A stretch of 64,000 bases of DNA, taken from the IMG/VR virus record IMGVR_UViG_3300021431_000075, positions 96,001 through 160,000 of that record; one strand, written 5' to 3'. Positions 2,183-20,232 of this stretch are shown piece by piece. The notes below the pieces were generated by a model. It ran no database searches, was not told the DNA's origin, and saw nothing but the letters and a program-made list of their open reading frames with translations. Within the stretch, counting starts at the first letter, position 1. The number at the start of each line of letters is the position of its first letter. Made by a program: the position numbers and the translations under genes. Source of the stretch: a virus. Lineage: Duplodnaviria; Caudoviricetes.

Positions 2183-2328
2183 AGCAATTATATATGTTTT
2201 ATAATATCTATTGACCGCATATGTCCAAAATGCCATAGGCAAACCATAAAATAAAATAGGAAAAACCATAAACGAATTATAGTTTTTCCTACCACATCAA
2301 AAACAGTAATTAAAATCAAAAGCAATGA

Positions 2329-2512: not shown

Positions 2513-2517
2513 ATGTT

Positions 2518-3433: not shown

Positions 3434-3446
3434 TGTTTTCTTGTTT

Positions 3447-3827: not shown

Positions 3828-3830
3828 TTC

Positions 3831-4448
3831 CTATCTTTTTTGACGGTAAAAGCCTCGATATGTAGTTTTCGGGTTCTTGCATAGACTCATATCCTTGCAT
3901 TTGCCGTTCTCGAACAAACAGCAGTCGTAGCAATGAGCCTCTCTTGTCTCCATGTCAATCCACGTAATGTCGGAGCCGTCATCATCTGTATCATCATCTT
4001 CATCATCTTCTTCATCATCTTCATCATCTTCTTTTTCATTACCCGCGATTCTGTTGATTTCATCGTAAATCCAACTTATCGGTTCCGAGAACCCGCTTGT
4101 ATCAATCAAGCAAATCTGACCGTCCGCATCTGTAATCTTCAGTGACCAGACTTCGATACTTCCGTCATCTTCAACAGTCAAAATATCGACAGACAACTTG
4201 TCAAACTCGATTTCTTTCTTATAGAGTTTAAGATTCAGAAGATTCAGAATATACGGACTCATTGTCTTGATGACTATATCCGAATCATCCTTGACAAAAT
4301 CGCCAAGATTATCGTTGAACCATGCGATTTGTTCCCAAGGAGACCTTTCGTTCTCTGGAAAGTCATAGAACCTTGTATTTTCAGAACCGGTAACTTCATA
4401 ATCTCGAAGTACGCTATAGTTCTCTCCAGTCGTATAAATCTTTATCAT
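3831..4448 (-). CDS. hypothetical protein resembling the C-terminal half of an AAA_21/ABC ATPase, with acidic tract and Cys cluster
   Basis: YDFPENERSPWEQ and IVIKTMSPYILN resemble degenerate Walker B/D-loop and H-loop; no Walker A. Confidence 0.5.
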   Translation of the reverse strand: MIKIYTTGENYSVLRDYEVTGSENTRFYDFPENERSPWEQIAWFNDNLGDFVKDDSDIVIKTMSPYILNLLNLKLYKKEIEFDKLSVDILTVEDDGSIEVWSLKITDADGQICLIDTSGFSEPISWIYDEINRIAGNEKEDDEDDEEDDEDDDTDDDGSDITWIDMETREAHCYDCCLFENGKCKDMSLCKNPKTTYRGFYRQKR

Positions 4449-5017
4449 TGCTTTTCTTCTTTAAAAACTGGTTTATTTTCTACTTCTTTGATGACAAAAT
4501 CACATTTCTCACAAACATTCAAACTCGTTAAACTATCATGAATTTTATCTCCCTCAGTATATGTGTTAAAACGCAAGCATTGCTCTCTCAACTTACAATA
4601 GATGTTCTGACATTTTCCGTAAGGAACCTGCTTCACATCCTTTATGAATTCACTTGCTATTCTACGAAACCAGTCAATGTAATAAAAACCATCCCACTTG
4701 TATGCTTCAACAGTTTTTGTTTTCTTGTGACCTTCTTTCACTTTAACCACATATCTGTTAGCAGGGTTATATCTTGCAAGAAGCTGCATAAAATACTTAT
4801 ACGGAGTATCATATATGAGTTCTTCGGGTTTCTTTCCTTCCCAATAGTTAAGATTCCGCTTTGCCATCATATAGACAAATTCACGTTCATTATCAGATAG
4901 TTGCGGATATAGATTAACAACACGCTCATAGACATCCCATCGCAAATGAGAACCACACATGCCACCTTGCAAGTACCAAAGAATCTCGAATTGATTAAGC
5001 GTTATTGTTGCTGACAT
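4445..5017 (-). CDS. hypothetical protein
   Basis: First gene after promoter; Cys-rich C-terminus. Confidence 0.7.
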   Translation of the reverse strand: MSATITLNQFEILWYLQGGMCGSHLRWDVYERVVNLYPQLSDNEREFVYMMAKRNLNYWEGKKPEELIYDTPYKYFMQLLARYNPANRYVVKVKEGHKKTKTVEAYKWDGFYYIDWFRRIASEFIKDVKQVPYGKCQNIYCKLREQCLRFNTYTEGDKIHDSLTSLNVCEKCDFVIKEVENKPVFKEEKQ

Positions 5018-5040
5018 AGAACTGTATTTTTAATAATTTC

Positions 5041-5073
5041 TGCAAATATAGAGTTTTCTCACCAAACTACAAA
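5041..5073 (-). promoter_or_regulatory. Bacteroidota primary-sigma promoter
   Basis: TTTG-19nt-TATATTTGCA. Confidence 0.8.
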
Positions 5074-5102
5074 ACTTCTATAGATAATTTTAGGTTTTAT
5101 TT

Positions 5103-5138
5103 AAAAAAGCAAGCGACAAATCAAAATGCCGCTTGCCT
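5103..5138 (-). terminator. intrinsic terminator
   Basis: GCAAGCG/CGCTTGC stem plus T6. Confidence 0.7.
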
Positions 5139-5141
5139 GAT

Positions 5142-7748
5142 TCAATCATTCAAAGATTTCTCAACAACATCACATAGCACCATAACCAACCTCTTGAATG
5201 CATCACGAGATTTATTAGCACTCTCATTCTGCGCATGCTGCTGATTGCAGTTGTTCCATCCGTCATAGTATGCCTTTCTATATTCTTCGGAATTACCGTC
5301 CAGATTAACATTGTGATGACAATAGTCCGGCTTCTTCATCCTTGCAAGTTCAACAAGTTTCGTGGCACGAACCTTAACATAATTCATCAAATCGTTTTCT
5401 TCAAAAAAACCGTCATTGTGTTTCTGGTTCCAGAACGCAATTACTCTACCGAGTTCCTGAAAGAACTCATCATCAACAGAATCAATCAGATTCTTGTCAA
5501 CTTCATCTTTACAATCATCCATCTTAACAAGCATATTTTTATCAGAATCGAACTTCCATCCGGTCTTTTCCATTACGAACTGCAAATAGTCTATCTGCTT
5601 CTTGTCGGCAGGAACCATGTCTTCCGCCTTATGAGAAATATAATCCGATTCAGAATGCATGATATTCCCATAACTGTCCAGAGAGAAATATGTCTTGCAT
5701 ATTCCGTCCGTTACTTCCTTGAATATTACCGTATATCCATTCTTGTCATACAGAACATCACCCGGCTCCGCATCTGTTATATTCCAGATGTGGAACAAGT
5801 CGTCAATGACCACACATTCTCTCTCAACCACCTCGCCATCTGTGTATTCTATCTCATACATATCATCCTTGACTTTGAGAATCCGGGAAACTTTCAAAAC
5901 CCTACGCAAGTTCGATGCAATCCAGTCGCCTTCCTTGAACTTCTTATGTCTGCACACCATCCCTTGTTGACAATCATAGAAGCAATTGTTTCTTGAAAGT
6001 TCTTCATTGAACTTGGCAATCTCAGAATCATTAGCAAACTCGTATTCGCCGTTGCCAAAACACAATGTACAACCGTCACTCTTGACATACGAGCCGTTCT
6101 CTTCCTTGATGCACAATTCCCCAGTTGACTTAATTTTCAATATGTCTCCTGCCTGCACTTGACGCTTCTTTATTCTTTTGTCCTGCTCATCCCAGACAAA
6201 ACCGGCAATCCACATCTTATGATAGAAAACCTTGCGCTGCTCATCTGTTGCAAGAACATACAACCCATCGTGAGATTCTTCAAGAGTTCCCATATATGAA
6301 TTGTCATCATTGTTCATATATTTTCCATTGCCATTAACACAACCGAGATACTCGACACAGTTACAAACTGTGTCATATGCACGCTTATTTATTCTATAGA
6401 ATATAAACGTCGTGTCTTTCCGTTCAGAACCGGGTTCCGATTTCATAATGACAACGTCTCCATATTGAGCATCTTGAATTTTCCATTCAGCTGCTGCGGT
6501 TTCATCTTGTTTCTTTCCAAAACGAACGCTCTTGAAGTTATCTAACAAGTTCTCATAATAACGAATTTCGGATGAAAAGAAGAAACCGTATCTGTTCATT
6601 TCTTTCAACGAATACATGAGCCTGCTCATATGACAATCGTCATCTTCAGTCCATTCATAACCGTCATTAGCCTTATTGCCAAGTGAACGTAACCAGTTGG
6701 TCAAGTCGCTTATCATGTCTTTAGTCAGACCAAACTTCATCAATTCTTCATCACTGTCACCAAGACGGCAAAAAACAGATTCAATCTGGTTTGATGCATT
6801 TTCTACCGCACGGTTCCACAACTCGTTACTCAATCTCACTTTCAATATCGTGAAATCAAACACAAAACCAGAATCTTTCATCTTCTTCAGCATCAACATC
6901 TGCATATTTCTTGATGCCGGGCATACTTCATCGACAGTCCATAAACTTTCATCAGGTTGTGGAAACAGTTCAACCTTGAACTGATTGTTGTCATCCAGAC
7001 CACAGAAAGCACAGATGCCATTACCGTTCTCAAGTGTGTTACTATATATGAACGGCTCTTGATTCTTGATATTCACAAGAATGTCACCCGGCAGCGCATC
7101 CTTGATATTCCATTTATGGTACAACGAATCAACATCAGAAACATCCATCAGCATCACATCTCCGCTTGTATCCTCCAATGAATACTTTCGGTTTTTAACA
7201 GAATTGACTTTAAAAATCTTTCTTCCGAAAGAAATCCAATCATCCGGAGAAAACTTAAAAGTTTCAATCTCGTATTCGTCTGGCTGTTCTAACGATTCAG
7301 AAGATTCTTCTTCTATTTTAACCAGTTGCTTCGTTTCGGCATTCCATTCATATCCAGCATTATGAATCCATTCAAACAGTTTCTTCTTCTGTTCTGATGT
7401 CGCTGGAACATATCCCTTGGTGTCGTCATGAAATCCTCGCAAATTTAGTTCTTGTTCAAGACCATGTCCTTCAAGACCACAGAAGCAAACAAAAGATGAA
7501 GTTATTTCATCAATTCCATCAAAATGACAGAATATACAAATGCTATTGCTGTCTTCATTGAACAGAATATCTCCATTCACAACATCCAAGAAGGTCCATT
7601 TACGATAATTTTTCTCACAAGCAATGCCAATAAAACCATTATCGCAAACATAACCTTCTGAAGTTACATCCATAATTTTCATAGGAGACCTTTCGGTTAA
7701 ATCCTTCTTGACAACAAAATCTCCAATCTTGAATTTCTTTTTCTTCAT
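5142..7748 (-). CDS. modular repeat protein (4 WxIxDAxxGD...PAT modules)
   Basis: KWTFLDVVNGD, KWNIKDALPGD, EWKIQDAQYGD, IWNITDAEPGD. Confidence 0.8.
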   Translation of the reverse strand: MKKKKFKIGDFVVKKDLTERSPMKIMDVTSEGYVCDNGFIGIACEKNYRKWTFLDVVNGDILFNEDSNSICIFCHFDGIDEITSSFVCFCGLEGHGLEQELNLRGFHDDTKGYVPATSEQKKKLFEWIHNAGYEWNAETKQLVKIEEESSESLEQPDEYEIETFKFSPDDWISFGRKIFKVNSVKNRKYSLEDTSGDVMLMDVSDVDSLYHKWNIKDALPGDILVNIKNQEPFIYSNTLENGNGICAFCGLDDNNQFKVELFPQPDESLWTVDEVCPASRNMQMLMLKKMKDSGFVFDFTILKVRLSNELWNRAVENASNQIESVFCRLGDSDEELMKFGLTKDMISDLTNWLRSLGNKANDGYEWTEDDDCHMSRLMYSLKEMNRYGFFFSSEIRYYENLLDNFKSVRFGKKQDETAAAEWKIQDAQYGDVVIMKSEPGSERKDTTFIFYRINKRAYDTVCNCVEYLGCVNGNGKYMNNDDNSYMGTLEESHDGLYVLATDEQRKVFYHKMWIAGFVWDEQDKRIKKRQVQAGDILKIKSTGELCIKEENGSYVKSDGCTLCFGNGEYEFANDSEIAKFNEELSRNNCFYDCQQGMVCRHKKFKEGDWIASNLRRVLKVSRILKVKDDMYEIEYTDGEVVERECVVIDDLFHIWNITDAEPGDVLYDKNGYTVIFKEVTDGICKTYFSLDSYGNIMHSESDYISHKAEDMVPADKKQIDYLQFVMEKTGWKFDSDKNMLVKMDDCKDEVDKNLIDSVDDEFFQELGRVIAFWNQKHNDGFFEENDLMNYVKVRATKLVELARMKKPDYCHHNVNLDGNSEEYRKAYYDGWNNCNQQHAQNESANKSRDAFKRLVMVLCDVVEKSLND

Positions 7749-9010
7749 TTTTCTTTTCTAATATTAATTAGTGTATCAATCTTTCTTAATGTGTCGTCAA
7801 CCCACTGTTTAACTTCAGCAGTTTCTTTGCCGAAATCATCTTCTCTGATGGTCTTATCAAAATCAAACAATTTGTTCTTTATTGACAACAGAATAGACGA
7901 ATCATCGTTTCTTTCCCACTTCTCTATCTTAAACTTGGCAAAAGTGCTGTTAAAATCGCTTCTTTCTTGTGCATTTGCAGGGATGACTCCATCTGTCGAG
8001 ACTTGCCGTGAATCATCAACAAACATTCCTGTACTTCTATCATAAAAACAATATGTTTCGCATCTATCGACTGTTATAAGTTTCTTGAACTTAAATAAAT
8101 TTCCACTCTTATCTGCAAGAATGTCTCCATCCACGGCATCTGAAATCTGCCATTTCCTGTTGAACTTTAAGAAGATACTTTTCTGAATTATGAAATCCAT
8201 CCCAGTTATCGTACAAACTTTGACTGTATTTGAAGTCATCTTTTTCAGATAGAACGGTTCATTTGTTCTCACATCAAGAAACCAATCTCCTATATGCAAA
8301 ATGCTTTCATCTTCTTGTTCTCCGTACTTGACCAAATCTTTCTTTTTCTCGCTCCATCTAAGATCATTCTTCGTCATAAAATCGTAGAATATGTTTCGTT
8401 CCGTTTTATCGGCCGGATGAAACTCACTGCTCATTTCTGCTGAGCATTCAACATAATAGAAGATATAATAGAAGCTATTGCGTTTTTCATCAATGACAAG
8501 TTCATCTTCTAAACCATGATACAATGTCAACTCATACCCACAAACACAATTCTCATTGTCAAGTTCTTTCAGCATGACAATGTGTGTTTCTTTATCATCA
8601 GGCAATGCATAAGTAACAGACAGCAAATCTCCGGGCTTTGAATCTTTGCTCAATTCCCATAAGCGGCACTGACTTTCCAACTCGCTTTCTTTACATATTC
8701 CAGTCAAACCGTCTTCGACATAATCAACAAGATAGTCTCCATCATCACGAACATCAACAACTTTGAATACGTTTCCGCAATAATGAACAAACCAGTCACC
8801 GACCTTGTAGTTTGGAAGAACTTCGCTTTTTGAAGATTCATCGCCATCTGAATTACAAATCTCGACTATTTCGCCGTTCTTGTACTCAAATCCCTGTTCT
8901 TCAAGCGCGTCATCAATCCAAGTTTTCATTATTTCCGAATCAATGTTGTGGACTCTATAATAATGTTTTATAGCGGACGCGATAAACTTAATATAATCAA
9001 ACTTTGCCAT
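7745..9010 (-). CDS. modular repeat protein (2 modules, N-terminal DF...ALxxQG domain)
   Basis: Start revised to MAKFDY; two GDW/DA-GD/PA units. Confidence 0.75.
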   Translation of the reverse strand: MAKFDYIKFIASAIKHYYRVHNIDSEIMKTWIDDALEEQGFEYKNGEIVEICNSDGDESSKSEVLPNYKVGDWFVHYCGNVFKVVDVRDDGDYLVDYVEDGLTGICKESELESQCRLWELSKDSKPGDLLSVTYALPDDKETHIVMLKELDNENCVCGYELTLYHGLEDELVIDEKRNSFYYIFYYVECSAEMSSEFHPADKTERNIFYDFMTKNDLRWSEKKKDLVKYGEQEDESILHIGDWFLDVRTNEPFYLKKMTSNTVKVCTITGMDFIIQKSIFLKFNRKWQISDAVDGDILADKSGNLFKFKKLITVDRCETYCFYDRSTGMFVDDSRQVSTDGVIPANAQERSDFNSTFAKFKIEKWERNDDSSILLSIKNKLFDFDKTIREDDFGKETAEVKQWVDDTLRKIDTLINIRKEK

Positions 9011-10370
9011 TTTCATCAGAATTATAAATTGTCTTAATCTTCTCAATCGAATCAAACACAATCTTCTGTTTTTCAAACAAATCGTATTTCTTGTGAATTA
9101 TATCACAAAATGCATCTTTCCGTTCAAACGACGCAGGAACCGTATCTACAACATTATGAATGCCGTTGCATTTCAAATCGAGCACCTTCTCATCACTGCT
9201 CAAATAAACGCACGAATGCCACTTGTTTATGTCTATCAATGATTCAAAAAATCCAATAACGCCGGAACCATCAATCAAGACATCTCCGGGCTTTGCATCA
9301 TTGATTGTCCACTTATGAAAATTGCAATCAACATAAGTAACGTATTTCTTATGACTACACTCATCACGTTGAGATTTCAATATATATTTAAACTTTGAAA
9401 TATCCTTTTTAATTACATCTTCAACAAAATAAACATTGCCGTCTGGATCGACAATCCAATCTCCGGGATGAAACTTCTGATCAACCTGTTCTTCTATATT
9501 TTTACTTTCACAATGGCAACCAATTTCTGAATTTGCAAAATCAGACTGTTCGTTGCCATCAATCTTCACAATTTTCTTATTGGCAAAATCAAAAGCATAA
9601 CCGTTTGAACGAAGCTCGTTAAGCAACATCATTTTCTGATTAAAGACAGCCGGAACGACATTTGTCATATAATGCGCCCTACCGCCAAGTGACAGTCCAT
9701 ATTCTTTCATCGGATTGTAATAAACAAAAGAATACCATTTAATGTTGGAAATCTTGTCAAAAATTCCAATATTTCCATGCATGTCCATGAGAACATCCCC
9801 TCTATTTGCATCATAGATTGTCCACCTACGAAACTCCGAATCTACATATTTCACATAATGAGTGAGCTTTGCGCCATTTGTACTTTCCAACACATAATAT
9901 GGCTTCAAATTTGCATTGTCAGTATCACAAACTTCAACAACTATATATGGTTCTTCTTTTCTGAAAATCCAATCTCCGGGTTGAAACTTCAGTGTTTCAG
10001 GTTTATTAGTTTCTTTCACCAAAGAAAAACAATCACAAAAAGAAGTAACATCGATAGACTTGGTATCTCTTATCAGATACGCGTTTCCTGTCAAATGATC
10101 ATCTTCTTCCGACAAGTATTTCTTGCCGACTTCAAACATAAATTCCGGTGTTCCCGTATATAAGACAGACTTTATACAGGTGTACCAGTTACCTGCCTTG
10201 ATTTCACAGTCTTTCTTCTGTTCAACAATCTCGTTGTTGACGATTTCAAAACCCTGCTCATTCAAGGCACCATTCAACCAGTCTCTCAACACCTTCCCGG
10301 CAGGAAACGAGTTCGTTCCCTTAACAAGAGACTTCAAAAGCAAACCAAAGTCAATATTTGGAGTTTTCAT
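8997..10370 (-). CDS. modular repeat protein (2 modules, N-terminal DF...ALxxQG domain)
   Basis: KFQPGDW...RWTIYDANRGD; KFHPGDW...KWTINDAKPGD. Confidence 0.8.
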   Translation of the reverse strand: MKTPNIDFGLLLKSLVKGTNSFPAGKVLRDWLNGALNEQGFEIVNNEIVEQKKDCEIKAGNWYTCIKSVLYTGTPEFMFEVGKKYLSEEDDHLTGNAYLIRDTKSIDVTSFCDCFSLVKETNKPETLKFQPGDWIFRKEEPYIVVEVCDTDNANLKPYYVLESTNGAKLTHYVKYVDSEFRRWTIYDANRGDVLMDMHGNIGIFDKISNIKWYSFVYYNPMKEYGLSLGGRAHYMTNVVPAVFNQKMMLLNELRSNGYAFDFANKKIVKIDGNEQSDFANSEIGCHCESKNIEEQVDQKFHPGDWIVDPDGNVYFVEDVIKKDISKFKYILKSQRDECSHKKYVTYVDCNFHKWTINDAKPGDVLIDGSGVIGFFESLIDINKWHSCVYLSSDEKVLDLKCNGIHNVVDTVPASFERKDAFCDIIHKKYDLFEKQKIVFDSIEKIKTIYNSDENGKV

Positions 10371-10381
10371 AACTGTATTTT

Positions 10382-11023
10382 TTAAATAATGTCTATATGT
10401 GTCAATGTGCGGTATTTAAGTCCGGGAGCCATAAGAATCTGAACCTTCTTATCTTCTGTTGTCAATAAAACAGGTTTCATAGAATCTTCAAGCGCATAGC
10501 GAATCACAAGACGTTCAATCTCCATCATGTTCATCGCCTGTATCAAAGTATCAACATAACCATAACTGAAAGCGTTTCCATGAATCATAAACTGAGCATA
10601 AGCAGACTCGTATCTGTCAATTTCTCCGATTCCGCTACATACAGGACACGTGTCATGCAAATGATAGACTGTTCCGTCAAGACCGGTATAACTCCAGTCA
10701 ACATAACCGCTTCCGCCACATTCAGAACAAAGATAATCATAGTCATCGACTGGAAACTTTCTGATTACATCTTTCAAATAATCCAGTGTCAGTTCTTCAT
10801 CAATCTGCATATCCGGCATCACTTTGCTGACATCCGGCGGAATCGAACCGTCAACAGTCTCTTCGTAACCGAGACTGGCGTCATGCATAGATTCATCTAT
10901 GCGAATAAGCATACGACCGTCTGTCGCGCATATAAAACCGTCCTGAAGAAACGGCTTGCTGATGTTATGTTGATTATTGTCTTCTCTATAGAAAAGTCTT
11001 AACAGTTGTTCTTCGTTCTTCAT
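10382..11023 (-). CDS. phage protein with DnaJ-like CxxCxGxG zinc finger
   Basis: CSECGGSG, CPVCSGIG; ATDG motif reminiscent of the sliding-clamp fold. Confidence 0.65.
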   Translation of the reverse strand: MKNEEQLLRLFYREDNNQHNISKPFLQDGFICATDGRMLIRIDESMHDASLGYEETVDGSIPPDVSKVMPDMQIDEELTLDYLKDVIRKFPVDDYDYLCSECGGSGYVDWSYTGLDGTVYHLHDTCPVCSGIGEIDRYESAYAQFMIHGNAFSYGYVDTLIQAMNMMEIERLVIRYALEDSMKPVLLTTEDKKVQILMAPGLKYRTLTHIDII

Positions 11024-11034
11024 AACACTCTAAA

Positions 11035-11508
11035 TTAAACATTCAATAATGTATGAGTTGATGCATTAAAAATATTCTGTATATATTCATCAGAGTCTAT
11101 TGCATCTATTGAAATTGCATCAATTAAGCCGCTTATGTTATCTGAAAATTCAGTACAGACGCGAACCTTTTGATTGTTGTTACTTATATTCTCTCTTACG
11201 AATTTTCCTCTGACTATTCTTTCAATCATATTGGCATCATTATAGTCATAGTCATTAACCAGCAATCGTGTAAGCGTTCTTCTTTTGTCAATTCCATTTT
11301 TAACATCAAGGAATTTCAAGCTGTCAATACAAGACTTTAATTCCGCAATCCAGTGAGCAAAGTTTTCACTTTCAGAATTGAACAATTGATACCATTTGCA
11401 AAGACACCAATTCTCTACCAGTTGAAACCGCAGTCCATCTACTCTTGCTTTGTATGCTTTCAATGACACAGTCGTTTTATTGATTATGTCTATTTTGTCA
11501 CAAATCAT
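11035..11508 (-). CDS. hypothetical protein
   Basis: AT-rich ORF, HWIAEL motif. Confidence 0.6.
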   Translation of the reverse strand: MICDKIDIINKTTVSLKAYKARVDGLRFQLVENWCLCKWYQLFNSESENFAHWIAELKSCIDSLKFLDVKNGIDKRRTLTRLLVNDYDYNDANMIERIVRGKFVRENISNNNQKVRVCTEFSDNISGLIDAISIDAIDSDEYIQNIFNASTHTLLNV

Positions 11509-11526
11509 AAAATTTTATTTGTTTCA

Positions 11527-11724
11527 TCATTTTGAATCATTAGCCGTGCAAAGCATTTGAAGAACTCCAACAAGCTGTTTCAAACGAGAACGTTCTATAT
11601 AGAAAAGTTCGCGTTCTACTTTTCCAGATTCGTACATTCCGATAAGAGTCCGCTCGCCGTTATCTTCAATATGACACCACTTCCACTCACCATCATGCAA
11701 GTCTATCTCAATCTTCTTTGCCAT
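11527..11724 (-). CDS. hypothetical protein
   Basis: Operon packing. Confidence 0.6.
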   Translation of the reverse strand: MAKKIEIDLHDGEWKWCHIEDNGERTLIGMYESGKVERELFYIERSRLKQLVGVLQMLCTANDSK

Positions 11725-11727
11725 TGT

Positions 11728-11943
11728 TCATTTCTTTGATTTTTTATTCAACATGTTAATAATTTTCAACAAGTTATCATGAAGATATTTTTCAGTTGAA
11801 ACAGAAATGGTTCTCATAAATTCATCGAGAACATCTTTAGCGCCCTCTATGTATGCATCACGACCTTCTTTATTATCGTCATAGCCATCTTGATCGATTA
11901 CTTGTGGGAACTTCTCTAATGCAGTTTCTTCGATTGATTTCAT
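11728..11943 (-). CDS. hypothetical protein
   Basis: Start revised to MKSIEETA; RDAYIEGA motif. Confidence 0.6.
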   Translation of the reverse strand: MKSIEETALEKFPQVIDQDGYDDNKEGRDAYIEGAKDVLDEFMRTISVSTEKYLHDNLLKIINMLNKKSKK

Positions 11944-12079
11944 TTTTAATTGTGTTTTAATGTTTTCAAAGTTTTCAAAGTGCAAATTTAGCATTTTATC
12001 TGAATATCTGCAAGAATTTATACAAAAATTAACAATAAAAATGCTTGCTGATTTCTCAACAAGCATTATAATTATAATT

Positions 12080-12496
12080 TCATTTCTTCTTTTTTGTCAA
12101 ATGACTCTTTATCCCTCCACATCGTCTACTACAACAAGGATTATTTTTAAAAGGCAAATCTTTCTTCCGTATCAAAAACTCTTTTCCACATATAGGACAT
12201 ATGACAGGAACCAATTCTCTATGTTTATGGTCTTTCACTAAATTATAATAACTGGATATAACTTGAAGATTCTCTATTCTATCATCCATTCTATTACCAT
12301 TTATATGATCTACATGAAAACCTACTGGAACATCTGTTTCATAATAACTTGTATACAAATATTTGGCATAACTCATACTTATCATATTACCTTCATTATC
12401 TCTTAATGTAGCAACTCTCCTTGGTTCTTTATTTGTATTGATGTATAGTCTTTTAAAGCCCTTATTCTTATAATATTCTGAAACCTCTCCAATCAT
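12080..12496 (-). CDS. HNH endonuclease with C-terminal zinc finger
   Basis: HVDHINGNRMDDRIENLQ; CPICGKEF...CCSRRC. Confidence 0.85.
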   Translation of the reverse strand: MIGEVSEYYKNKGFKRLYINTNKEPRRVATLRDNEGNMISMSYAKYLYTSYYETDVPVGFHVDHINGNRMDDRIENLQVISSYYNLVKDHKHRELVPVICPICGKEFLIRKKDLPFKNNPCCSRRCGGIKSHLTKKKK

Positions 12497-12515
12497 ATAT
12501 AAAATTAAAAAAATG

Positions 12516-12589
12516 TGGACCAGCCAGGGCTTGAACCTGGGACCTATGGCTTATGAGGCCATTGCTCTAACCGACTGAGCTACAAGTCC
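12516..12589 (-). tRNA. tRNA with CAT anticodon (Ile2-type likely, or elongator Met)
   Basis: Full cloverleaf; anticodon arm ATGGC-CTCATAA-GCCAT; T-loop TTCAAGC; no encoded CCA. Confidence 0.92.
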
Positions 12590-12598
12590 ATTATATTT

Positions 12599-12783
12599 AA
12601 GAGTCTCTGGCCTTATGTATGTCTGCAGTTTTATACTGTTTGTACTTCACAGTCCACAGAGTGCTGATCCCCTATTATGCCTTCAGGAAAACTACCAGAC
12701 CGTCCAGTCATTCAGAATCCGATTCAGGCGAGTAGCATCTCATGGTAGTGTCTTTTGATGCCGGCTCTTTTACGGAGACTCTT
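12599..12783 (-). ncRNA. candidate structured ncRNA, about 185 nt, family not recognised
   Basis: 9-bp closing stem AAGAGTCTC/GAGACTCTT, several internal helices, GC-richer than flanks, lies between a promoter and the tRNA. Confidence 0.65.
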
Positions 12784-12801
12784 TGTATTTCTAATTTCTG
12801 A

Positions 12802-12834
12802 TGCAAAGATAATGCTTTTTCGCCATCCGGCAAA
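12802..12834 (-). promoter_or_regulatory. Bacteroidota primary-sigma promoter driving ncRNA-tRNA-HNH
   Basis: TTTG-19nt-TATCTTTGCA. Confidence 0.8.
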
Positions 12835-12860
12835 AGAAAAATCCAAAAAAATTTTAGTTT

Positions 12861-14795
12861 TTAGACAAATAAAGCGATTTCCTTGCTTTTGCAATCCAGA
12901 AAAACATCATTCTCAACCTTTACCAAACCTCCCGGCTTCAACACCACATTTCCATCAATCCACTTATCAAACACCACACTTCCATCTTCACTAACGACAT
13001 TGCACAGCCCGTTCTTGTCCATGACAATATGATATGAATCAACACCGTAGCCGATTATTTCCTTTATCTTATCATATGAACGAGATGGAATCCATTCGTC
13101 AAGAATAAGCCCATTTCCAATCACATAATAGTTATACATGCTTTCCGCATTCCAAGAACCATTTATTTCAGAAGAAGATGACGCTTTAATCATCTTTGTA
13201 ATGTTCGGGCGCTTTGAAACAACAAGCAACTTTCCATATGCTCTTTCCAGACCATACCCGAGTTTCGAACTGTCGAAAAGAGCATGACCGTCTTTTTCAA
13301 TAACTCTCTTTGTATAAACTTTCTTGCTCTCTCCGCCGACTTTAATTTCATTCGTCGTCTCGACTATCGCTGTTCCATTATGAAAGTCACCGACTTCATC
13401 AAATCTCTCGTCAGATATAAAGTTCCCGTTCTTGTCCATAAAGGTCCAACCGTCTTCATCCTGAACCGATACAAGACCATCTTCAAATAAACTCGTATCC
13501 TGAAACATCTTGTCCGTTATAGGCAATCCGGTCCTATCGATAAAAGTGTAGTTTTCTTCATCAACCTGCACCCGCGCGATTCCGTCCGAAAAATAACTAC
13601 GGTACATATATTTGCCATCGGACACAAACTCACCTTTCTTGTTGATTACCATATAATCATAATTAATGTCACCTTCTTTGACAGCGAAAGCAAGACCTTC
13701 TGAAAAATCGGAACAGTCCCTGAACTTCTTTTTCATAAAGAACTTTCCGTTCGTATCAACATATGTCTTCTTCTTGTCACCAAGTTCAACCACAGCACAC
13801 CCGTCACTAAAGGCTCGACATGATCTAAACCACTTTGTGCTCATCAACTTGCCATCCCTATCTATGAAATTATAGCATTGCTCTTTTCTTTCCGCATCCT
13901 TGACGACAAACCAGCCCTCCGAATATTTTCCGATTTCTGCCATATTCTCAATAATGAACTCTTCCTTGTCTATGCTGTAAATGCTGTATCTTGAACTGTC
14001 CTCCGAATACACGACAAGTCCGAGTTCTTCATAAACCCTGCAATAATCTCCATCGTTATCAAACAAGAATTTCTTGTTCTTCATGTCATAAACATTGCAA
14101 CCGGAAACGCCACTTCCAAGTACCAGATAATCTCCATGCACAGCATTGACCATACATCCAGAATTACACAAATCTCTATCTGGCGTAATCTGGTTTCCTT
14201 TTGAGTCAACAACAACATATTTGGTATGAAACGGATAATTAATCAGGAATGCATAATAACCGTCACGACCCTTCAGTATATTGTTTTTAATCGCGCTGAC
14301 AGCAATATGCTTCATGACGTCTTTTTCAGAATACTTGGATTTAAATAAGTAAGTGGACAGAACTTGCAGATTTGAACACATCCCAGTTGTGATATGTGTA
14401 ATCAAATCACTTCCTCTAATAGTCCTTATTTCATATTTAACTTTGACCATCAGAAAAGTACTCACAATGCTCATCAATACATCACAAAAGACTCCTATAA
14501 ATGAATCGTTTTCTCTAAACTCAAAATCAATCTTGAAATGTTTGAAATTCGGCTTGTCATTTGAAGAATATGCTATACTGCTCCATATCCTGAACTTGTA
14601 ACTGCACAACTTGTCCAAATCCCGCTTGATTTTTTTAAACGCAACATCTTCACATGAGTAAATATCCACAACTACATGTAACTTGACAGTCTTGATTTCG
14701 TCATCCTCATCGTTATTGTCAGTGACTTCATCTGCTTCAACTTTATCAAGAAGATTTTCTGCCAAATATTTTCTATTAAAATAATCGTTATGCAT
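12861..14795 (-). CDS. WG-repeat protein
   Basis: Repeated FS(D/E)GxAxV...Y(N/T)FIDxxG units. Confidence 0.85.
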   Translation of the reverse strand: MHNDYFNRKYLAENLLDKVEADEVTDNNDEDDEIKTVKLHVVVDIYSCEDVAFKKIKRDLDKLCSYKFRIWSSIAYSSNDKPNFKHFKIDFEFRENDSFIGVFCDVLMSIVSTFLMVKVKYEIRTIRGSDLITHITTGMCSNLQVLSTYLFKSKYSEKDVMKHIAVSAIKNNILKGRDGYYAFLINYPFHTKYVVVDSKGNQITPDRDLCNSGCMVNAVHGDYLVLGSGVSGCNVYDMKNKKFLFDNDGDYCRVYEELGLVVYSEDSSRYSIYSIDKEEFIIENMAEIGKYSEGWFVVKDAERKEQCYNFIDRDGKLMSTKWFRSCRAFSDGCAVVELGDKKKTYVDTNGKFFMKKKFRDCSDFSEGLAFAVKEGDINYDYMVINKKGEFVSDGKYMYRSYFSDGIARVQVDEENYTFIDRTGLPITDKMFQDTSLFEDGLVSVQDEDGWTFMDKNGNFISDERFDEVGDFHNGTAIVETTNEIKVGGESKKVYTKRVIEKDGHALFDSSKLGYGLERAYGKLLVVSKRPNITKMIKASSSSEINGSWNAESMYNYYVIGNGLILDEWIPSRSYDKIKEIIGYGVDSYHIVMDKNGLCNVVSEDGSVVFDKWIDGNVVLKPGGLVKVENDVFLDCKSKEIALFV

Positions 14796-14827
14796 CTATT
14801 CGGACCGAACCGTTTTCTTTATTTTTA

Positions 14828-14842
14828 TTATAAGATATTTAT
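14828..14842 (-). promoter_or_regulatory. putative phage late-type promoter (ATAAATA core)
   Basis: ATAAATATCTTATAA, identical at 24348-24362. Confidence 0.5.
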
Positions 14843-14852
14843 TTTTCAAATC

Positions 14853-14886
14853 AAAAATGCTTGAGTTTCATTTCGAGACTCAAGCA
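14853..14886 (-). terminator. intrinsic terminator
   Basis: TGCTTGAGT/ACTCAAGCA stem plus T-run. Confidence 0.7.
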
Positions 14887-14934
14887 ATGACTACATAAGA
14901 AACATTATATTGAATAATAAAGAAAAATCAAAAA

Positions 14935-15231
14935 TCAATCATCAAACTCATCTGCAAGTTCTCTCAGCATTTGAGCAACGTCAGAGCTGCCAGCATAGAA
15001 CTTATTTGCAACAAGGATGTTCTTGACTTTCTCTTTCATTTCTTCAATAGAAATCCTGTCACAGTTGCAAGAACCACAATCGCTTCCTTTTGCTTCTTCA
15101 ACGTTATCGCTCAAATCTCCAAACAAAGAATTGGCGACATCATCTGCCTCTCCGGCATATTTCTCAGCTTCATATTCATCACAGAAATTGCAATTCCGAC
15201 TGCAGACTTTCCAAAATTTGCAAACAGACAT
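14935..15231 (-). CDS. small Cys-rich hypothetical protein
   Basis: ORF track; packing. Confidence 0.65.
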   Translation of the reverse strand: MSVCKFWKVCSRNCNFCDEYEAEKYAGEADDVANSLFGDLSDNVEEAKGSDCGSCNCDRISIEEMKEKVKNILVANKFYAGSSDVAQMLRELADEFDD

Positions 15232-15251
15232 AATCGTTATTTTATTTTAGT

Positions 15252-15464
15252 TCATTCTTCGGTTAATTTATCTTTAAACTTCAAATATTCTGAGCATAAA
15301 GACTTGCAATAATACTTTTCCATTTCAGTGCATCTTGAATCACAAAACGCTTTCAACGCCTTATCTATGCAAAAATCATAGCAATCATCGAACAGCGTTC
15401 TCGGATTTATAACTTCTACCGGTCTTCCATGACCGTCAAAAATCTTACTTCTTGAACTGCTCAT
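15252..15464 (-). CDS. hypothetical protein
   Basis: ORF track; packing. Confidence 0.6.
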   Translation of the reverse strand: MSSSRSKIFDGHGRPVEVINPRTLFDDCYDFCIDKALKAFCDSRCTEMEKYYCKSLCSEYLKFKDKLTEE

Positions 15465-15864
15465 TTGGTTTTATTTGTTTTAGTTCATAATCGGTGACAA
15501 GTTCTGCAAGTCCGTTCACTATCAAACCATGATGATCGAAACCGTTCTCGTTCAACCAGTCTATGCTTGACGACGTATCATAGTAACAAGCGAACTCGCC
15601 GTCATCTCTAAATATACATCGCTTATGATATTCAACAAGTTCAAGCTCTGTCATAGAATCTTTCCTGCGAAGGAAAGGTCTCAAGACATCAACAACTCCA
15701 TGTCTAAAATCATCAAGAAGTTCTCCTGTCAATGTAGCAATATGAAACTGATACCCATTAAAACTGCTCACACCGACATTAACTTTGATTTCATACGGCA
15801 ACCTGCCGCTCAAATCCTTATAAACAAGTTTTCTGTTCTCGTCAAGTTCAAATCCAAACATCAT
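15445..15864 (-). CDS. phage protein, paralog of 25252-25689
   Basis: KDLSGRLPY...PFLR...SMTE...IDWLN...FDHHGLI; start revised. Confidence 0.7.
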   Translation of the reverse strand: MMFGFELDENRKLVYKDLSGRLPYEIKVNVGVSSFNGYQFHIATLTGELLDDFRHGVVDVLRPFLRRKDSMTELELVEYHKRCIFRDDGEFACYYDTSSSIDWLNENGFDHHGLIVNGLAELVTDYELKQIKPNEQFKK

Positions 15865-15880
15865 TTTCTGCAACTTTGTT

Positions 15881-16465
15881 TCAATCTTCTTTTGCAAAAC
15901 CGTGTTCAACACACCAGTTGTACATTTCCTGCATTGACTCCTGCGGTGTCTTTCCGTAGCAAATCGCATTGTCATAAGGACCTGTCTCTGAATCCGGGTT
16001 CATACAAACCGCTACTTCGTCAGTTCCATAGCAAGCCTTCCAATCCTTTCCATCATTGTGCAACGTAAACCAGCCGATATCAAGACCATCCTTGTCATCA
16101 GATGCATAACCGACAACTTCGCCTTCATCATTGAGCAGCTTGTTTCTTCCAATATGCGACGGCAATCTCTTGAAAAGCTCATCAACTGACATAAGACCGG
16201 AAGAATCTTCCTTGATAACCGCATCTATCGGAACAAAATCGAATCTTGGAACATAACCACATTTCATTGCAAGTTCAACTAACTTGCTCAACTTTGGATT
16301 GTAGTCATAGTCCATCAGTTTCTTGATGCTGCTTTTAGACAAACCGAATTCTTCTATAGAAATCTTCTTGCCTTCTCCGGCATGCTCTACGATAAACCTA
16401 TTGAACTGCAAACACAATTTTGCAATCCAATATTCCGGAGCATTCAAAAGTTCTTCTCTTGTCAT
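15881..16465 (-). CDS. XRE-HTH/antitoxin-like domain fused to an unknown domain
   Basis: MTREELLNAPEYW...YNPKLSKLVELAMKCGYVP. Confidence 0.6.
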   Translation of the reverse strand: MTREELLNAPEYWIAKLCLQFNRFIVEHAGEGKKISIEEFGLSKSSIKKLMDYDYNPKLSKLVELAMKCGYVPRFDFVPIDAVIKEDSSGLMSVDELFKRLPSHIGRNKLLNDEGEVVGYASDDKDGLDIGWFTLHNDGKDWKACYGTDEVAVCMNPDSETGPYDNAICYGKTPQESMQEMYNWCVEHGFAKED

Positions 16466-16475
16466 TGCTTTATAA

Positions 16476-16856
16476 TTAAAAATTAGTTTTCATGAATTGT
16501 AGAAAATCAGCAACATCACGCATTTTCATTTTCATCAATAATAGAAAACAAGCATCAACTTCATTGTCTGTTCCATTTGTCGAATAAACCTTTCCTTCTT
16601 TTTGAACAGTCACCAACAGCAAACCACTTTCTTTATCTCGTGAAATCTGATAACTGTCGAACAAAGACAATAATGCAGCAAGAGACCAACATGGAGTCTT
16701 TTCTTTTGAAGAACACGGATGTTGACAATTTGTATGAATAATGTGGTAGCAATCATTATGTCGAACATAATAAGAATCTGCAGTTTTCTCATCCAAGATT
16801 AATCCAAGCAGCTCCGACTGTTTCAAGTCTGTATGAGTTTTAACTTTTATTTCCAT
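16476..16856 (-). CDS. TxxxQS...PCWSL family phage protein
   Basis: Motifs shared with 30355, 44805 and 53087 genes. Confidence 0.7.
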   Translation of the reverse strand: MEIKVKTHTDLKQSELLGLILDEKTADSYYVRHNDCYHIIHTNCQHPCSSKEKTPCWSLAALLSLFDSYQISRDKESGLLLVTVQKEGKVYSTNGTDNEVDACFLLLMKMKMRDVADFLQFMKTNF

Positions 16857-16966
16857 AATTAATCTTCTTTGTTCAAAATCTCATCTTTAAACTTACAAAA
16901 TCTTTCGCATCTGTTATTGCAACTACATTGCTGTTCATCTGTACATAACGAATTGCAGTATAACAG

Positions 16967-17230
16967 TCATGCATTCAAACCAAGAAACTCACGAACCTTG
17001 TCTTTTTGTATTCTTGGAATAGGACTCCAAGCAATGACCCTATTGTCTGCATAGTCACAGACATGGTTCTCACCATCAGGATCGTGTTCTTCTGTCATCT
17101 GGCTGCACCAATATTTGCTTATATCATCATAAACATAAACATAGAAACCAGACATATAACTATCATAGCAAAAACATCTTTGCATATGCTCAGGTCTCTT
17201 GACCTTTGTATCAATCCATTTAATTTCCAT
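16967..17230 (-). CDS. DUF551-like phage protein
   Basis: KWIDTKVKRPE ... VIAWSPIP. Confidence 0.6.
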   Translation of the reverse strand: MEIKWIDTKVKRPEHMQRCFCYDSYMSGFYVYVYDDISKYWCSQMTEEHDPDGENHVCDYADNRVIAWSPIPRIQKDKVREFLGLNA

Positions 17231-17269
17231 ACAGTTATCTCTCTTTTAGTCAACAAAAAAGTTCATCAT

Positions 17270-17554
17270 TCAAGCATCCGGTTCTTCCTTAATGACAGAA
17301 TCCATCGGGATGAAATCAATCACCGGGATATAACCGCATTTCATCACCAGTTCAACCATCTTGCTCAACTTGGGATCAAAAAACAGATTATTCAGTTTTT
17401 CCGTCATTTCTGGCGAACTGCATCCATCTTTTAAATCATCATCATCCTTGATTTCTTTAAAATGTTTTAGAATAAAATGGCTATATTTTGTACACAAGCC
17501 AACACTCCAATTTTCTGGAGATTTTTTTAAAAGTTCTACTTCTGCTTTTGTCAT
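17270..17554 (-). CDS. short paralog of the 15881-16465 HTH domain
   Basis: ELLKKSPENW...PKLSKMVELVMKCGYIPVIDF. Confidence 0.65.
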   Translation of the reverse strand: MTKAEVELLKKSPENWSVGLCTKYSHFILKHFKEIKDDDDLKDGCSSPEMTEKLNNLFFDPKLSKMVELVMKCGYIPVIDFIPMDSVIKEEPDA

Positions 17555-17570
17555 TGTTTCTTATTTTTAA

Positions 17571-18035
17571 CTAATTGCTTGTTTTTGAACCGTCAACAAG
17601 ACCTGCTTTCTTGTAATATTCGATTATATTTTGTATAAATGCCGCATCTAACCTTAAATTTCCAAGCAAAAAGAAATATTTCAACAACTTATAAACATCA
17701 CTTTCGTACTCAACTGGCACAAATGAAGTGAACAGTTGTCGAACGTTCATTTGAAACTGCTTACCAAGAGCATTGTCACTTCTGACATTATATAAGCCGT
17801 CTGAAACATATTCAAGCCAATATGTTTCTCCTTGCTTCATCCATGTCATAACCGGAATGATGCAACGAAGAAAACGACCAGTCACAAAATCCCTGATAAC
17901 ATCTTCGTCTATCACGTTTTGACTACCATCAGCACCAACGATCATGTGATTGTCATCACAATCCTGTTCCCATTCTTCGAACGATTCACCAAATATGGCT
18001 TTTATCCATCTTCTTGAAAATATTTGCTGTTTCAT
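17571..18035 (-). CDS. hypothetical protein
   Basis: C-terminus shared with 18060-18269. Confidence 0.65.
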   Translation of the reverse strand: MKQQIFSRRWIKAIFGESFEEWEQDCDDNHMIVGADGSQNVIDEDVIRDFVTGRFLRCIIPVMTWMKQGETYWLEYVSDGLYNVRSDNALGKQFQMNVRQLFTSFVPVEYESDVYKLLKYFFLLGNLRLDAAFIQNIIEYYKKAGLVDGSKTSN

Positions 18036-18104
18036 AATGTATCTATAAACCTTGCTTAATTATAGTGTTTTCGAACCGTCAACAAGACCTTCTTTCTTAT
18101 AATA
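17580..18104. repeat. 39-bp direct repeat (17580-17618 and 18066-18104)
   Basis: 36/39 identical; encodes YYKKxGLVDGSKT in both genes. Confidence 0.85.
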
Positions 18105-18269
18105 GTCAACATATTCTTGTGCATCCGGTCCTATTTCGTTCCATTGACTGATTTCATTCCATTCTCTTTCAAGAACATCTTTCGGAGTTTCTTTAAAATG
18201 TCTCTCCAACCCGTCTGAAATCAGACCGTTACTGCTCTCAACAGTTCTGTTTATTTCTAAATCTTCCAT
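18060..18269 (-). CDS. small hypothetical protein
   Basis: ETPKDVLEREWNEI...EIGPDA. Confidence 0.6.
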   Translation of the reverse strand: MEDLEINRTVESSNGLISDGLERHFKETPKDVLEREWNEISQWNEIGPDAQEYVDYYKKEGLVDGSKTL

Positions 18270-18272
18270 TTA

Positions 18273-18503
18273 TCAAACATTCTTAACAAACAAACTAATA
18301 TCTACCCTGTCAGCAAGACTGGACTCCAAGAATGTGATAGAAGTTATCTCATAGTTCCTGTATTTGCGACAACTTTCAACTCCGGCTCTATAATCACTCA
18401 ACCAGAATGTGACTTCATGCTCATCTTCTGTTTCAGATTCAACAATCAACTTGACTCTTGCTTCTTCGTCACAAATCAAATTAAAAAAATCATCAACAGT
18501 CAT
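18273..18503 (-). CDS. hypothetical protein
   Basis: ORF track; packing. Confidence 0.6.
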   Translation of the reverse strand: MTVDDFFNLICDEEARVKLIVESETEDEHEVTFWLSDYRAGVESCRKYRNYEITSITFLESSLADRVDISLFVKNV

Positions 18504-18506
18504 AAA

Positions 18507-19022
18507 TTATTCAACTTTAATGTATTCGACATCTACATCATTAGCGTCATCACCATCTTCCTTCACGAACTTGTCAAAACCGGCGAACTTCTCGACCCAT
18601 TTACGAGTCCTTGCATCATAGCATCCGAACCATTTTGCAATCATGGTTATGAAACCGGGCATCGCAAGATGCTTGCTCAAAAACTCTTCATATGCACTCT
18701 CGGCTTCTTCCCTGCTTGTAGCGAACTCGCATTTCTCGCCGTTAGTCTCATAGTTGAAATTGATGTTGTATTGCTCAGTCACTTTATCCATGATGTCTTT
18801 CAGTGTCGGTGCATAATCAACAACAGAAAGCGGTTCCGCAAGTCCGACATAGACAATGCTGTTCAGTTCTCCGTTTTCATCTTCGCCGAAGTAATCATCA
18901 TCTTCATTGTTCCAAGCGTCATCAACAAACTTGACAAGTTCTTCAACTGAACTAAACTTATCGGAAAAACACTCGTCTTCATTGGGTCCAAATATAAACT
19001 CGTTTCTTGTTTCTTCTTCCAT
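18507..19022 (-). CDS. acidic hypothetical protein
   Basis: Strongly D/E-rich. Confidence 0.7.
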   Translation of the reverse strand: MEEETRNEFIFGPNEDECFSDKFSSVEELVKFVDDAWNNEDDDYFGEDENGELNSIVYVGLAEPLSVVDYAPTLKDIMDKVTEQYNINFNYETNGEKCEFATSREEAESAYEEFLSKHLAMPGFITMIAKWFGCYDARTRKWVEKFAGFDKFVKEDGDDANDVDVEYIKVE

Positions 19023-19155
19023 CTTCTATCTTTTTAATGCATGTCTCTTGTCTCACAAAATGCAGGATAACCGTTGCACATAATCTTCCGGCATTTGATG
19101 ACTTTTTTCATCTTATTGTATGTCTCTTTCAACTTCTTTAATCTCATTTTGATTT

Positions 19156-20232
19156 CTATGCTTCATTAGAATATCTTGCTGAATTTTCAACAATCTCTTT
19201 CTCTGTAGCACGTCTGAAATAATTGTCGAAATCTCTCTTTGAAACATGGATGAAACTTCCGCTTCCGGGCCATGAGCACAGGTCTCCGTCTTTCGAACAA
19301 TAAAGAACCGAACCTTCCACGAGATGCATAAAATGTTTCTTGACTACATACCAGCAGCCTTCTGTCGGATATACAAAACTTCGGTCTGTAGCTGTACTGC
19401 TCACATCACAACCTTCATTTGCACGCACTTCAACAGACGCAAGCAAACTGAGAATCTTGTCAATATCCATCCCATACCAGACACAACGAGTCGGTTTCTC
19501 GTCTGTATTGTCTTGATTTCTCTTTAACGTATTGCTCTTCACTTCATTGAATTGCTTAACTACTTTGCCGAGCATCGAACTGTCATAATAGTTATTGACA
19601 GAATTCGAATCTTTCAATTTCTTAAAAAAGCAAATGAGTTCACCGATTTCAAGTCCATGCCATGATAATGGTTCTTCACTATCAATCTCATTATAAATGC
19701 CTTCGAAAACATCAATGATTCTCTGAATCAGAAAGTTCCTGTCGTTATATTCGACCGGTTTCTTCACATCTCTAACCACAGGACCTGTCGAACAACCAAC
19801 AGGTTTGCATCCAATACCGGCTTTGTTCTTATAGAACTTGACTGCATCAAGACAAGCATTGAGAACATAGTCAGAAACATCATTCGCGCCTATTGAATAA
19901 TTCTCAATTGTCTTGAACCTTTTCATCAGTTCATCCCAGACATTGCGAGAGTACTTGTCAGCAAAATCAACAATACTTATGTCTGTTTTTGATTTCTGCG
20001 ATTCAATCAATGCAATTGCATCACCAACGGTAACAAACCCCTTGATTGGCTCATCTTTGTCCTCAAAAGATTTCAATAATTCCAAGATACCGTCCAGAAT
20101 CATTCCATTGACAAGTTCTGCTGATTCCGGAAACATTCGTGCAAGCGTTCTTGCACAAATCGTTTCTCTTTTTTCTAAGGCATCTTGGACAATGCCGAGA
20201 GCATTTTCATAGTTGTTTTTGTCTGTATCCAT
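19156..20232 (-). CDS. multi-module hypothetical protein (YExAL...FPE N-terminus, GxWY...RATEKE C-terminus)
   Basis: Shares modules with the repeat family. Confidence 0.7.
   Translation of the reverse strand: MDTDKNNYENALGIVQDALEKRETICARTLARMFPESAELVNGMILDGILELLKSFEDKDEPIKGFVTVGDAIALIESQKSKTDISIVDFADKYSRNVWDELMKRFKTIENYSIGANDVSDYVLNACLDAVKFYKNKAGIGCKPVGCSTGPVVRDVKKPVEYNDRNFLIQRIIDVFEGIYNEIDSEEPLSWHGLEIGELICFFKKLKDSNSVNNYYDSSMLGKVVKQFNEVKSNTLKRNQDNTDEKPTRCVWYGMDIDKILSLLASVEVRANEGCDVSSTATDRSFVYPTEGCWYVVKKHFMHLVEGSVLYCSKDGDLCSWPGSGSFIHVSKRDFDNYFRRATEKEIVENSARYSNEA

Follow-up and report, generated by a model that had tools for sequence, protein, structure and literature searches.

The stretch of DNA analysed here, hereafter the window (64,000 nt), comprises bases 96001–160000 of a virus record that is 673,114 bp long and carries direct terminal repeats. 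The large terminase (TerL) of this genome shared 46% identity with the TerL of the Prevotella Lak megaphages and was distant from any other. Moreover, TATCTTTGCA occurred 28 times in the genome compared with 2.3 expected, with a TTG approximately 20 nt upstream, and the −7 consensus of Bacteroides is TAnnTTTG (PMC4747536); judged by their sequence, the promoters of this genome are of the Bacteroidota pattern. Together, the TerL identity and the promoter pattern suggest a Lak-related megaphage of a Bacteroidota host as the source, and the 673-kb phage is a gut or rumen megaphage. Full promoters of the form TTTG-N19-21-TAnnTTTG numbered only ~40 in 673 kb, so most genes must use other signals, and only two were seen on the minus strand of window positions 1–20000 (12804–12834 and 5043–5073). 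These few host-type promoters may be markers of early units.

Layout and relatives of the transcription unit

The locus lies on the minus strand and reads, in order, promoter, structured RNA, tRNA(CAT), HNH gene, and terminator. The promoter (12804–12834) is of the Bacteroidota type, with a TTTG −33 box (12834–12831), a 19-nt spacer, and a TAtcTTTG −7 box (12811–12804). The −7 box plus the CAT 3' of it (TTATCTTTGCAT) was invariant in all eight aligned loci, including the distant relative L024, in which the promoter-to-RNA spacer was otherwise unalignable. Transcription probably starts near 12797, and the 5' leader (12784–12797), predicted to be unstructured, was placed by its distance from the −7 box and is not conserved in L024. 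The RNA core (12599–12783), closed by helix P1, starts 20 nt past the last G of the −7 box, and a 9-nt A/U spacer (AAAUAUAAU, 12590–12598) separates P1 from the 5' end of the tRNA, in agreement with the first-pass annotation of this DNA, which had put the RNA about 20 nt after a consensus promoter and about 10 nt before the tRNA. The RNase P site is expected at 12590/12589. The tRNA(CAT) (12515–12589) was called by ARAGORN and scored 70 bits in Rfam. A gene for an HNH homing endonuclease of 138 aa (12080–12496; PHROG HNH endonuclease, E = 4e-18) lies between the tRNA and an intrinsic terminator (12040–12067) composed of a 12-bp stem and a T run, and the next promoter (12013–11983) follows downstream of the terminator.

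No promoter or terminator was found between the RNA and the tRNA, and the order of promoter, RNA, tRNA, and terminator was identical in every relative. In the related loci L018 and L024, the same terminator hairpin and the next TTG-N-TAAATTTG promoter were located directly after the tRNA, suggesting that the self-contained unit of promoter, RNA, tRNA, and terminator is ancestral and that the HNH gene is a later insertion. From this layout, the RNA and the tRNA are likely co-transcribed from one host-type promoter.

The gene upstream of the unit encodes a 644-aa WG-repeat protein, for which orthologues at 97, 89, 87, 83, and 46% identity were found in a collection of 5.8 billion proteins. The contigs of all these orthologues carried the same intergenic element, including that of the distant relative, with its flanking protein of 46% identity. 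In addition, a two-motif pattern gave 12 matches in JGI metagenomes, only two of which (L028 and L037) were real. A covariance model of the RNA (R1) scored 221 bits at the window locus, where it found the single copy of the 673-kb genome, and matched 12 other metagenomic contigs at E ≤ 1e-41 (seven distinct sequences), in which the element follows orthologues of the 644-aa gene. Six sequences were 84–92% identical to the window, and L024 was 52% identical. The distribution is thus narrow, with seven distinct sequences in one clade.

Further searches for copies extended to phage and host collections. When the region was compared with 50,697 phage records by blastn, only the tRNA gave matches, scans of IMG/VR with an exact 41-mer and a tRNA 25-mer gave nothing, and neither the upstream 644-aa protein nor TerL had relatives in IMG/VR. 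Likewise, no significant match was obtained with blastn and R1 in Lak-A1, Lak-B1, Lak-C1, and the crAss-like phages cr273_1 and cr7_1, and a sample of 151 Bacteroidales genomes gave no match to R1. Two looser three-motif patterns run on IMG/VR and GTDB genomes yielded at least 296 matches, and none of the 261 loci scored with R1 reached E < 0.3. Querying the proteins again with P0005, the distant orthologue, provided no further orthologues, and the relatives of the downstream 213-aa protein (35–37% identity) were encoded on contigs without the RNA. In an exhaustive search of the representatives, WG repeats dominated the matches, and the one N-terminal match, P0140, is a paralogue of the 644-aa protein from a gene array without an intergenic gap. 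This array, on a related phage contig (L348:1-11878), is a tandem series of at least seven closely packed genes of 625–735 aa, P0140 among them, and faint WG-repeat matches were seen in at least two.

Covariation and fold of the RNA

Nested helices were obtained with RNAalifold and then refined by hand, and pairs were counted on a MAFFT alignment. RNAalifold on its own recovered the nested helices, with compensatory changes in 22 of 50 pairs. After refinement, compensatory changes were present in 23 of the 51 proposed pairs compared with 5.1 ± 2.0 in shuffles (0 of 500 reached the observed count), the structure being derived from the same sequences as were scored and L024 alone supplying most of the compensatory cells. 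Slid controls gave 1–6 pairs with changes on both sides, and paired cells amounted to 95.8% compared with 33–45% when the partners were slid by 1–3 columns. Independent double changes also occurred inside the close clade, namely in P2 of L018 (G-C to A-U and U-A to G-C), P3 of L028, P5a of L017 and L022, and P6 of L022 and L037. Moreover, 29 cells were G.U and only 3 were A.C, an excess which indicates that the RNA is read from the same strand as the tRNA.

These data bear on the reading that the element holds no functional RNA, being conserved as a spacer only because its carriers share a recent ancestor, or else encoding a small protein. Folded alone, the window sequence had an MFE of −44.7 kcal/mol with a z-score of −0.33 (76 of 200 shuffles folded at least as well), a non-significant value in keeping with a mere spacer, and the case for structure therefore rests on the relatives. 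The free MFE fold of L024 departed from the consensus around P3, P6, and P7. As for coding, each sense frame contained one to five stops and close relatives differed by 1-nt indels. The antisense frame was open across the element in five of the seven sequences, with an 80-codon ATG ORF in L028, as might be expected of a gene, but it was stopped in the window and in L017 and shifted by 1-nt and 2-nt indels; the purine-rich sense strand accounts for the open antisense frames, and the G.U excess fixes the sense strand. A small ORF was thus rejected on either strand by its stops and frame-shifting indels. Furthermore, the pairs were kept in L024 despite only 43% identity to the window in paired columns (62% in unpaired columns), so the reading as spacer or gene appears already contradicted by the covariation and retains a negligible probability. 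Compensatory changes, strand-specific G.U pairs, and the lack of a conserved reading frame, all generic marks of a structured ncRNA, were found together, and the element is almost certainly a real structured RNA. The phage ncRNA proposed on first reading is hence borne out as a conserved, covarying, and non-coding structured RNA on the tRNA strand.

The fold comprises seven helices, two three-way junctions, and a loop–loop pairing. P1, the closing stem recognized on first reading, pairs AAGAGUCUC (12783–12775) with GAGACUCUU (12607–12599); all of its cells were paired, and five of its nine pairs had changed on both sides. The P2 hairpin (12730–12767) consists of GAG/CUC and GGCAUC (12762–12757)/GAUGCU (12739–12734) and carries a 17-nt loop, L2 (12756–12740). 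All cells of P2 were paired and six of nine pairs showed changes on both sides, the counterparts of GGCAUC/GAUGCU being GACAGC/GCUGUC in L018 and UCCGAU/AUCGGA in L024. P3 (12610–12729) pairs GCCU (12729–12726) with AGGC (12613–12610), and three of its four pairs had changed on both sides (one of them from C-G to U-A in L028, a close relative), while its outermost pair was frequently mismatched. P3 encloses the second three-way junction, which holds P4–P5a–P5b with loop L5 and P6–P7 with loop L7.

P4 (12666–12719) pairs GAUUC (12719–12715) with GGAUC (12670–12666); all of its cells were paired and three of five pairs had changed on both sides. It encloses an internal loop, UGAAU/AUAAUAGG, both strands of which were invariant in all seven sequences, and the P5a/P5b hairpin with loop L5 (12699–12688). 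Within P5a, G-C was replaced by A-U in L017 and U.G by A-U in L022 and L037. P6 and P7 (12622–12660) correspond to UCUGUGG (12660–12654)/CUGCAGA (12628–12622) enclosing ACUGU/ACAGU, exactly as first drawn, and end in the loop L7 (GAAGUACAA). Two pairs of P6 had changed on both sides and three on one side, with U-A to C-G in L022 and L037. The core of L7 is AAG-NN-CAA; the window clade has AA-GUAC-AA and L024 has AA-GCGC-AA, and the centre is self-complementary in either form.

The long-range contact (12691–12749) joins ACUACCA in L2 (12749–12743) with UGGUAGU in L5 (12697–12691). This pairing had been noted before as an ordinary stem enclosing small hairpins; the pairing itself stood, and it proved to connect two hairpin loops. 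GGCAUC/GAUGCU had in turn been taken for a competing or pseudoknot pair; the pair is present as part of P2, and the two helices can co-exist because ACUACCA/UGGUAGU is a kissing or pseudoknot contact between hairpin loops. The L2–L5 pairing was 7 bp in the six close sequences, and in L024 the hand-registered CCUAUCC and GGAUAGU formed six contiguous base pairs, with two pairs changed on both sides. Since helices of this length arose in 18–22% of loop shuffles, the contact was rated as moderately supported. Besides the internal loop of P4 (UGAAU/AUAAUAGG) and the core of L7 (AAG-NN-CAA), the fixed junction and loop elements were UAAAA, GAAWCGG, and AUAYAUA. Given that the stems drift while the junctions and loops stay fixed, the RNA is expected to work through its tertiary structure.

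Comparison with known RNA families

Among the 4227 models of Rfam 15 run at gathering thresholds on the RNA–tRNA region, only the tRNA passed. With permissive filters and E up to 10, the window, L024, and L018 copies gave only non-recurring, unrelated chance matches, leaving the RNA as unrecognized as it had first appeared. It had also been said to lack hallmarks of tmRNA and RNase P RNA, and accordingly ARAGORN called no tmRNA in the window or the related loci, no Rfam tmRNA model matched, and no RNase P model matched at E up to 10, the long-range pairing being loop-to-loop and not P4-like. Rfam matches were likewise absent for 6S RNA, manA, and the ribozyme families. For HEARO/IscB omega RNA, there was no HEARO match, and the neighbouring gene encodes a 138-aa free-standing HNH_3 endonuclease that is absent from loci where the RNA stays. 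A TnpB guide RNA was rejected as well, the RNA being single-copy and adjoining no tnpB in a genome with several TnpB genes.

Y RNAs (YrlA type, RF02553) are of similar size and have 5' and 3' ends that form a closing stem, but the present RNA has no Rfam match and no tRNA-like module. YrlA and YrlB were rejected since RF02553 did not match and no Ro60/TROVE gene was found in the phage genome by a search that did match control genomes; a search for DUF2828 was empty in the phage, as was its control.

Another reading derives the RNA by strong divergence from a known family (tmRNA, RNase P RNA, 6S, Y RNA, a group I/GIR1-type ribozyme, or a HEARO/omega-type or TnpB guide), but no weak Rfam match recurred in three divergent copies at E up to 10. 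In its favour, the crAss-like phage cr273_1 (NC_055904.1) has an annotated 370-nt 'tmRNA' (L001:2518-2887) separated by 118 nt from a downstream tRNA-Met with 86% identity to the tRNA(CAT) of the window, an HNH gene is adjacent in the window, and IS607/TnpB elements are present in the genome. R1, however, matched neither cr273_1 nor cr7_1 nor the Lak phages, and L018, L024, and L028 lack the HNH gene and keep the RNA. With the results for tmRNA, TROVE, and tnpB given above, a diverged known family is very improbable. As a separate observation, the tRNA-Met of cr7_1 is preceded by an unannotated gap of 434 nt.

The position of the RNA directly after a promoter recalls the put RNAs of phage HK022 (putL and putR), which are structured RNAs of ~70 nt with two hairpins that head long operons. 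By analogy, the nascent RNA would modify the polymerase and allow it to read through downstream terminators, in keeping with its start ~20 nt after the promoter, as in the HK022 put RNAs, and with the window promoter being the only full host-type promoter on this strand for several kb upstream. The unit in L018 and L024, on the other hand, ends at a strong terminator after the tRNA and is followed by a fresh promoter, so no downstream operon depends on read-through, and an end-to-end closing stem with a 190-nt multi-junction fold is unlike a two-hairpin RNA. A put-type antiterminator was thus rejected for the unit, and processive antitermination has a very small probability.

A likeness was also found with the large phage RNAs ROOL (RF03087) and GOLLD (RF01998), which are 'often near tRNA islands' and form RNA-only cages (bioRxiv 10.1101/2024.12.08.627333). 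Like the present RNA, these are phage-encoded, highly structured, pseudoknotted, and typically neighbours of phage tRNA genes; a link to a tRNA is possible for GOLLD. In contrast, they are 3–4 times larger (~580 to over 800 nt), are unmatched in sequence or structure, occur mainly in Firmicutes, Actinobacteria, and other hosts, and have been shown to form multimers. Membership of either family was rejected, as neither model matched and the RNA has ~190 nt compared with at least 500 nt.

The T4 RNAs C and D are also stable RNAs of a tRNA region, with a biological role that is still unknown (PMC3014915). They are small, transcribed in the tRNA region, and cut from the tRNA precursor, as is proposed here, but they have no sequence relation to the present RNA and lie inside the multi-tRNA cluster of an enterobacterial phage, compared with a single RNA and a single tRNA in a dedicated promoter-to-terminator unit of a Bacteroidota megaphage. 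T4 RNA C/D, ROOL, and GOLLD are the nearest precedents, as functional analogues and not as relatives, from which the RNA differs by its unrelated sequence and fold, its different phage–host group, its unit of one RNA and one tRNA, and, relative to ROOL and GOLLD, its much smaller size.

In Escherichia coli, the 3'ETS-leuZ sponge is a functional RNA freed from a tRNA primary transcript by tRNA-processing nucleases. It is a short, little-structured base-pairing sponge, in contrast to the 190-nt covarying multi-junction fold with conserved loops described here.

The general kind, tRNA-linked structured phage RNAs, is already known, and the RNA is, as judged against Rfam 15, a new family within it, which may be listed among the 10,006 bulk-predicted candidate viral structured RNAs of a 2023 catalogue (PMC10690425). 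In the literature that was searched, no ncRNA was reported for Lak-related megaphages of gut and rumen Bacteroidota.

The RNA could also be a ribozyme, self-cleaving or of another new type, or assemble into RNA-only multimers in the manner of ROOL and GOLLD. Invariant junction nucleotides in a complex fold are typical of ribozymes and ornate RNAs, the change of the A-flanked, self-complementary centre of L7 from GUAC to GCGC in L024 fits a homodimer kissing loop, the L2–L5 pairing could equally be intermolecular, and the cage-forming phage RNAs share the neighbourhood of tRNAs (bioRxiv 10.1101/2024.12.08.627333). Conversely, no ribozyme family matched, a 4-nt palindrome kept in one comparison is expected in ~1 of 4 cases by chance, the 190 nt are far below the size of ROOL or GOLLD, and the release of the RNA from the tRNA would already be explained by RNase P. 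A ribozyme or multimer is, on balance, improbable.

The tRNA swap and the role of the RNA

The tRNA(CAT) is probably a tRNA-Ile2 that reads AUA and depends on lysidine. This assignment is suggested by four relatives (L017, L022, L023, and L037) in which this position is occupied by an unrelated tRNA-Ile(TAT) (L017:4550-4624, L022:6214-6288, L037:212-286), with acceptor, anticodon, and T stems that differ from those of tRNA(CAT). AUA accounted for 33% of the Ile codons of the phage (24 per 1000 codons), and no match to PF01171, i.e., no TilS-type gene, was found in the phage genome, so a phage-encoded TilS partner was rejected. Across the tRNA swap, the upstream RNA and the downstream HNH gene were unchanged. 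Because the RNA was kept while the tRNA was exchanged, it appears to be tied to the AUA decoder and not to a particular tRNA sequence. The slot itself looks like a cassette swapped between two ways of decoding AUA.

The window, L017, and L022 carried the HNH gene, L018, L019, L020, L024, and L028 lacked it, and the HNH proteins were 93–95% identical beside either type of tRNA; the RNA persisted with or without this gene. The pattern is reminiscent of the way in which SegB drives inheritance of the tRNA region in T4. An IS607-type element with a serine resolvase and TnpB (L018:7052-9156), restricted to the L018 lineage (L018, L019, and L020), lies ~0.8 kb downstream of the tRNA. A second tRNA in the window, tRNA-Leu(CAA) (25706–25789, minus strand), has a 67-nt gap upstream and no such leader, and the RNA was thus rejected as a generic tRNA leader. 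This tRNA-Leu was missed by the whole-window Rfam run at gathering thresholds and scored 46 bits when searched alone, which is a filter effect. Complementarity between the RNA and the anticodon was also rejected, as the AUGAG in L2 was not kept in the relatives.

The constant association with an AUA-decoding tRNA raises the question of whether the RNA acts in cis as a leader in the tRNA precursor, that is, as a riboswitch-like or RNase P-gating control of the amount of mature AUA-decoding tRNA with no role once it is cut off. The RNA was always fused upstream of the AUA decoder, whichever tRNA body was present, the 3' strand of P1 ends 9 nt from the expected RNase P site, and a complex fold with conserved junctions resembles an aptamer. 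However, no expression platform was seen, the stretch from P1 to the tRNA showing no conserved terminator, anti-terminator, or alternative pairing; the spacer of 9 nt becomes 22–23 nt in the relatives bearing the other tRNA, the RNA being unaltered; and no Rfam aptamer class matched. No riboswitch is known to occur upstream of a tRNA, which also counts against such a leader. A riboswitch was rejected for this locus, which leads into a tRNA in place of a coding gene, has neither a terminator nor a sequestering helix conserved in the P1–tRNA interval, and matches no aptamer class. Overall, cis-acting control of the tRNA is unlikely, though it keeps some weight.

The best explanation, to which we assign a probability of roughly 60%, is that the element is an unclassified structured RNA of ~190–205 nt that is stable, derived from a tRNA precursor, trans-acting, and carried by a small clade of Lak-related Bacteroidota megaphages. 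Host RNA polymerase would start at the consensus Bacteroidota promoter, transcribe the RNA and, 9 nt further on, the AUA-decoding tRNA, and stop at the intrinsic terminator, in the window version after reading through the inserted HNH gene. The RNA would fold compactly, with the 9-bp closing stem joining both ends, and a cut by RNase P at the 5' end of the tRNA would free an RNA of ~205 nt with a short 3' tail; both the release and the stability are predicted. The folded RNA may then act as a separate molecule that binds a partner, which could be a protein, a ligand, the tRNA, or the RNA itself, and base-pairing to mRNA would not be the expected mode.

A more specific and rather speculative proposal pairs the RNA functionally with the AUA-decoding tRNA. 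The RNA would then represent a new kind of functional RNA linked to a tRNA, namely a ribozyme, a sensor of tRNA or ligand, or a dimer or cage made of RNA only. If this were true, the AUA decoder would be acted on, protected, or delivered by the RNA while the phage infects Bacteroidota, a dimer or cage would form through the self-complementary L7 and the L2–L5 contact, and the RNA would stay fixed while the tRNA body and the anticodon strategy (CAU with lysidine versus UAU) change beneath it.

Pseudoknotted, complex RNAs with invariant junctions are often ribozymes, ligand sensors, or self-assembling particles, and the phage RNAs beside tRNA genes, i.e., T4 RNA C/D, ROOL, and GOLLD, have gone for years without a function. 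The present RNA offers a small case of ~190 nt with one promoter, one RNA, one tRNA, and one terminator, for which R1 provides a ready covariance model and the tRNA swap a natural experiment.
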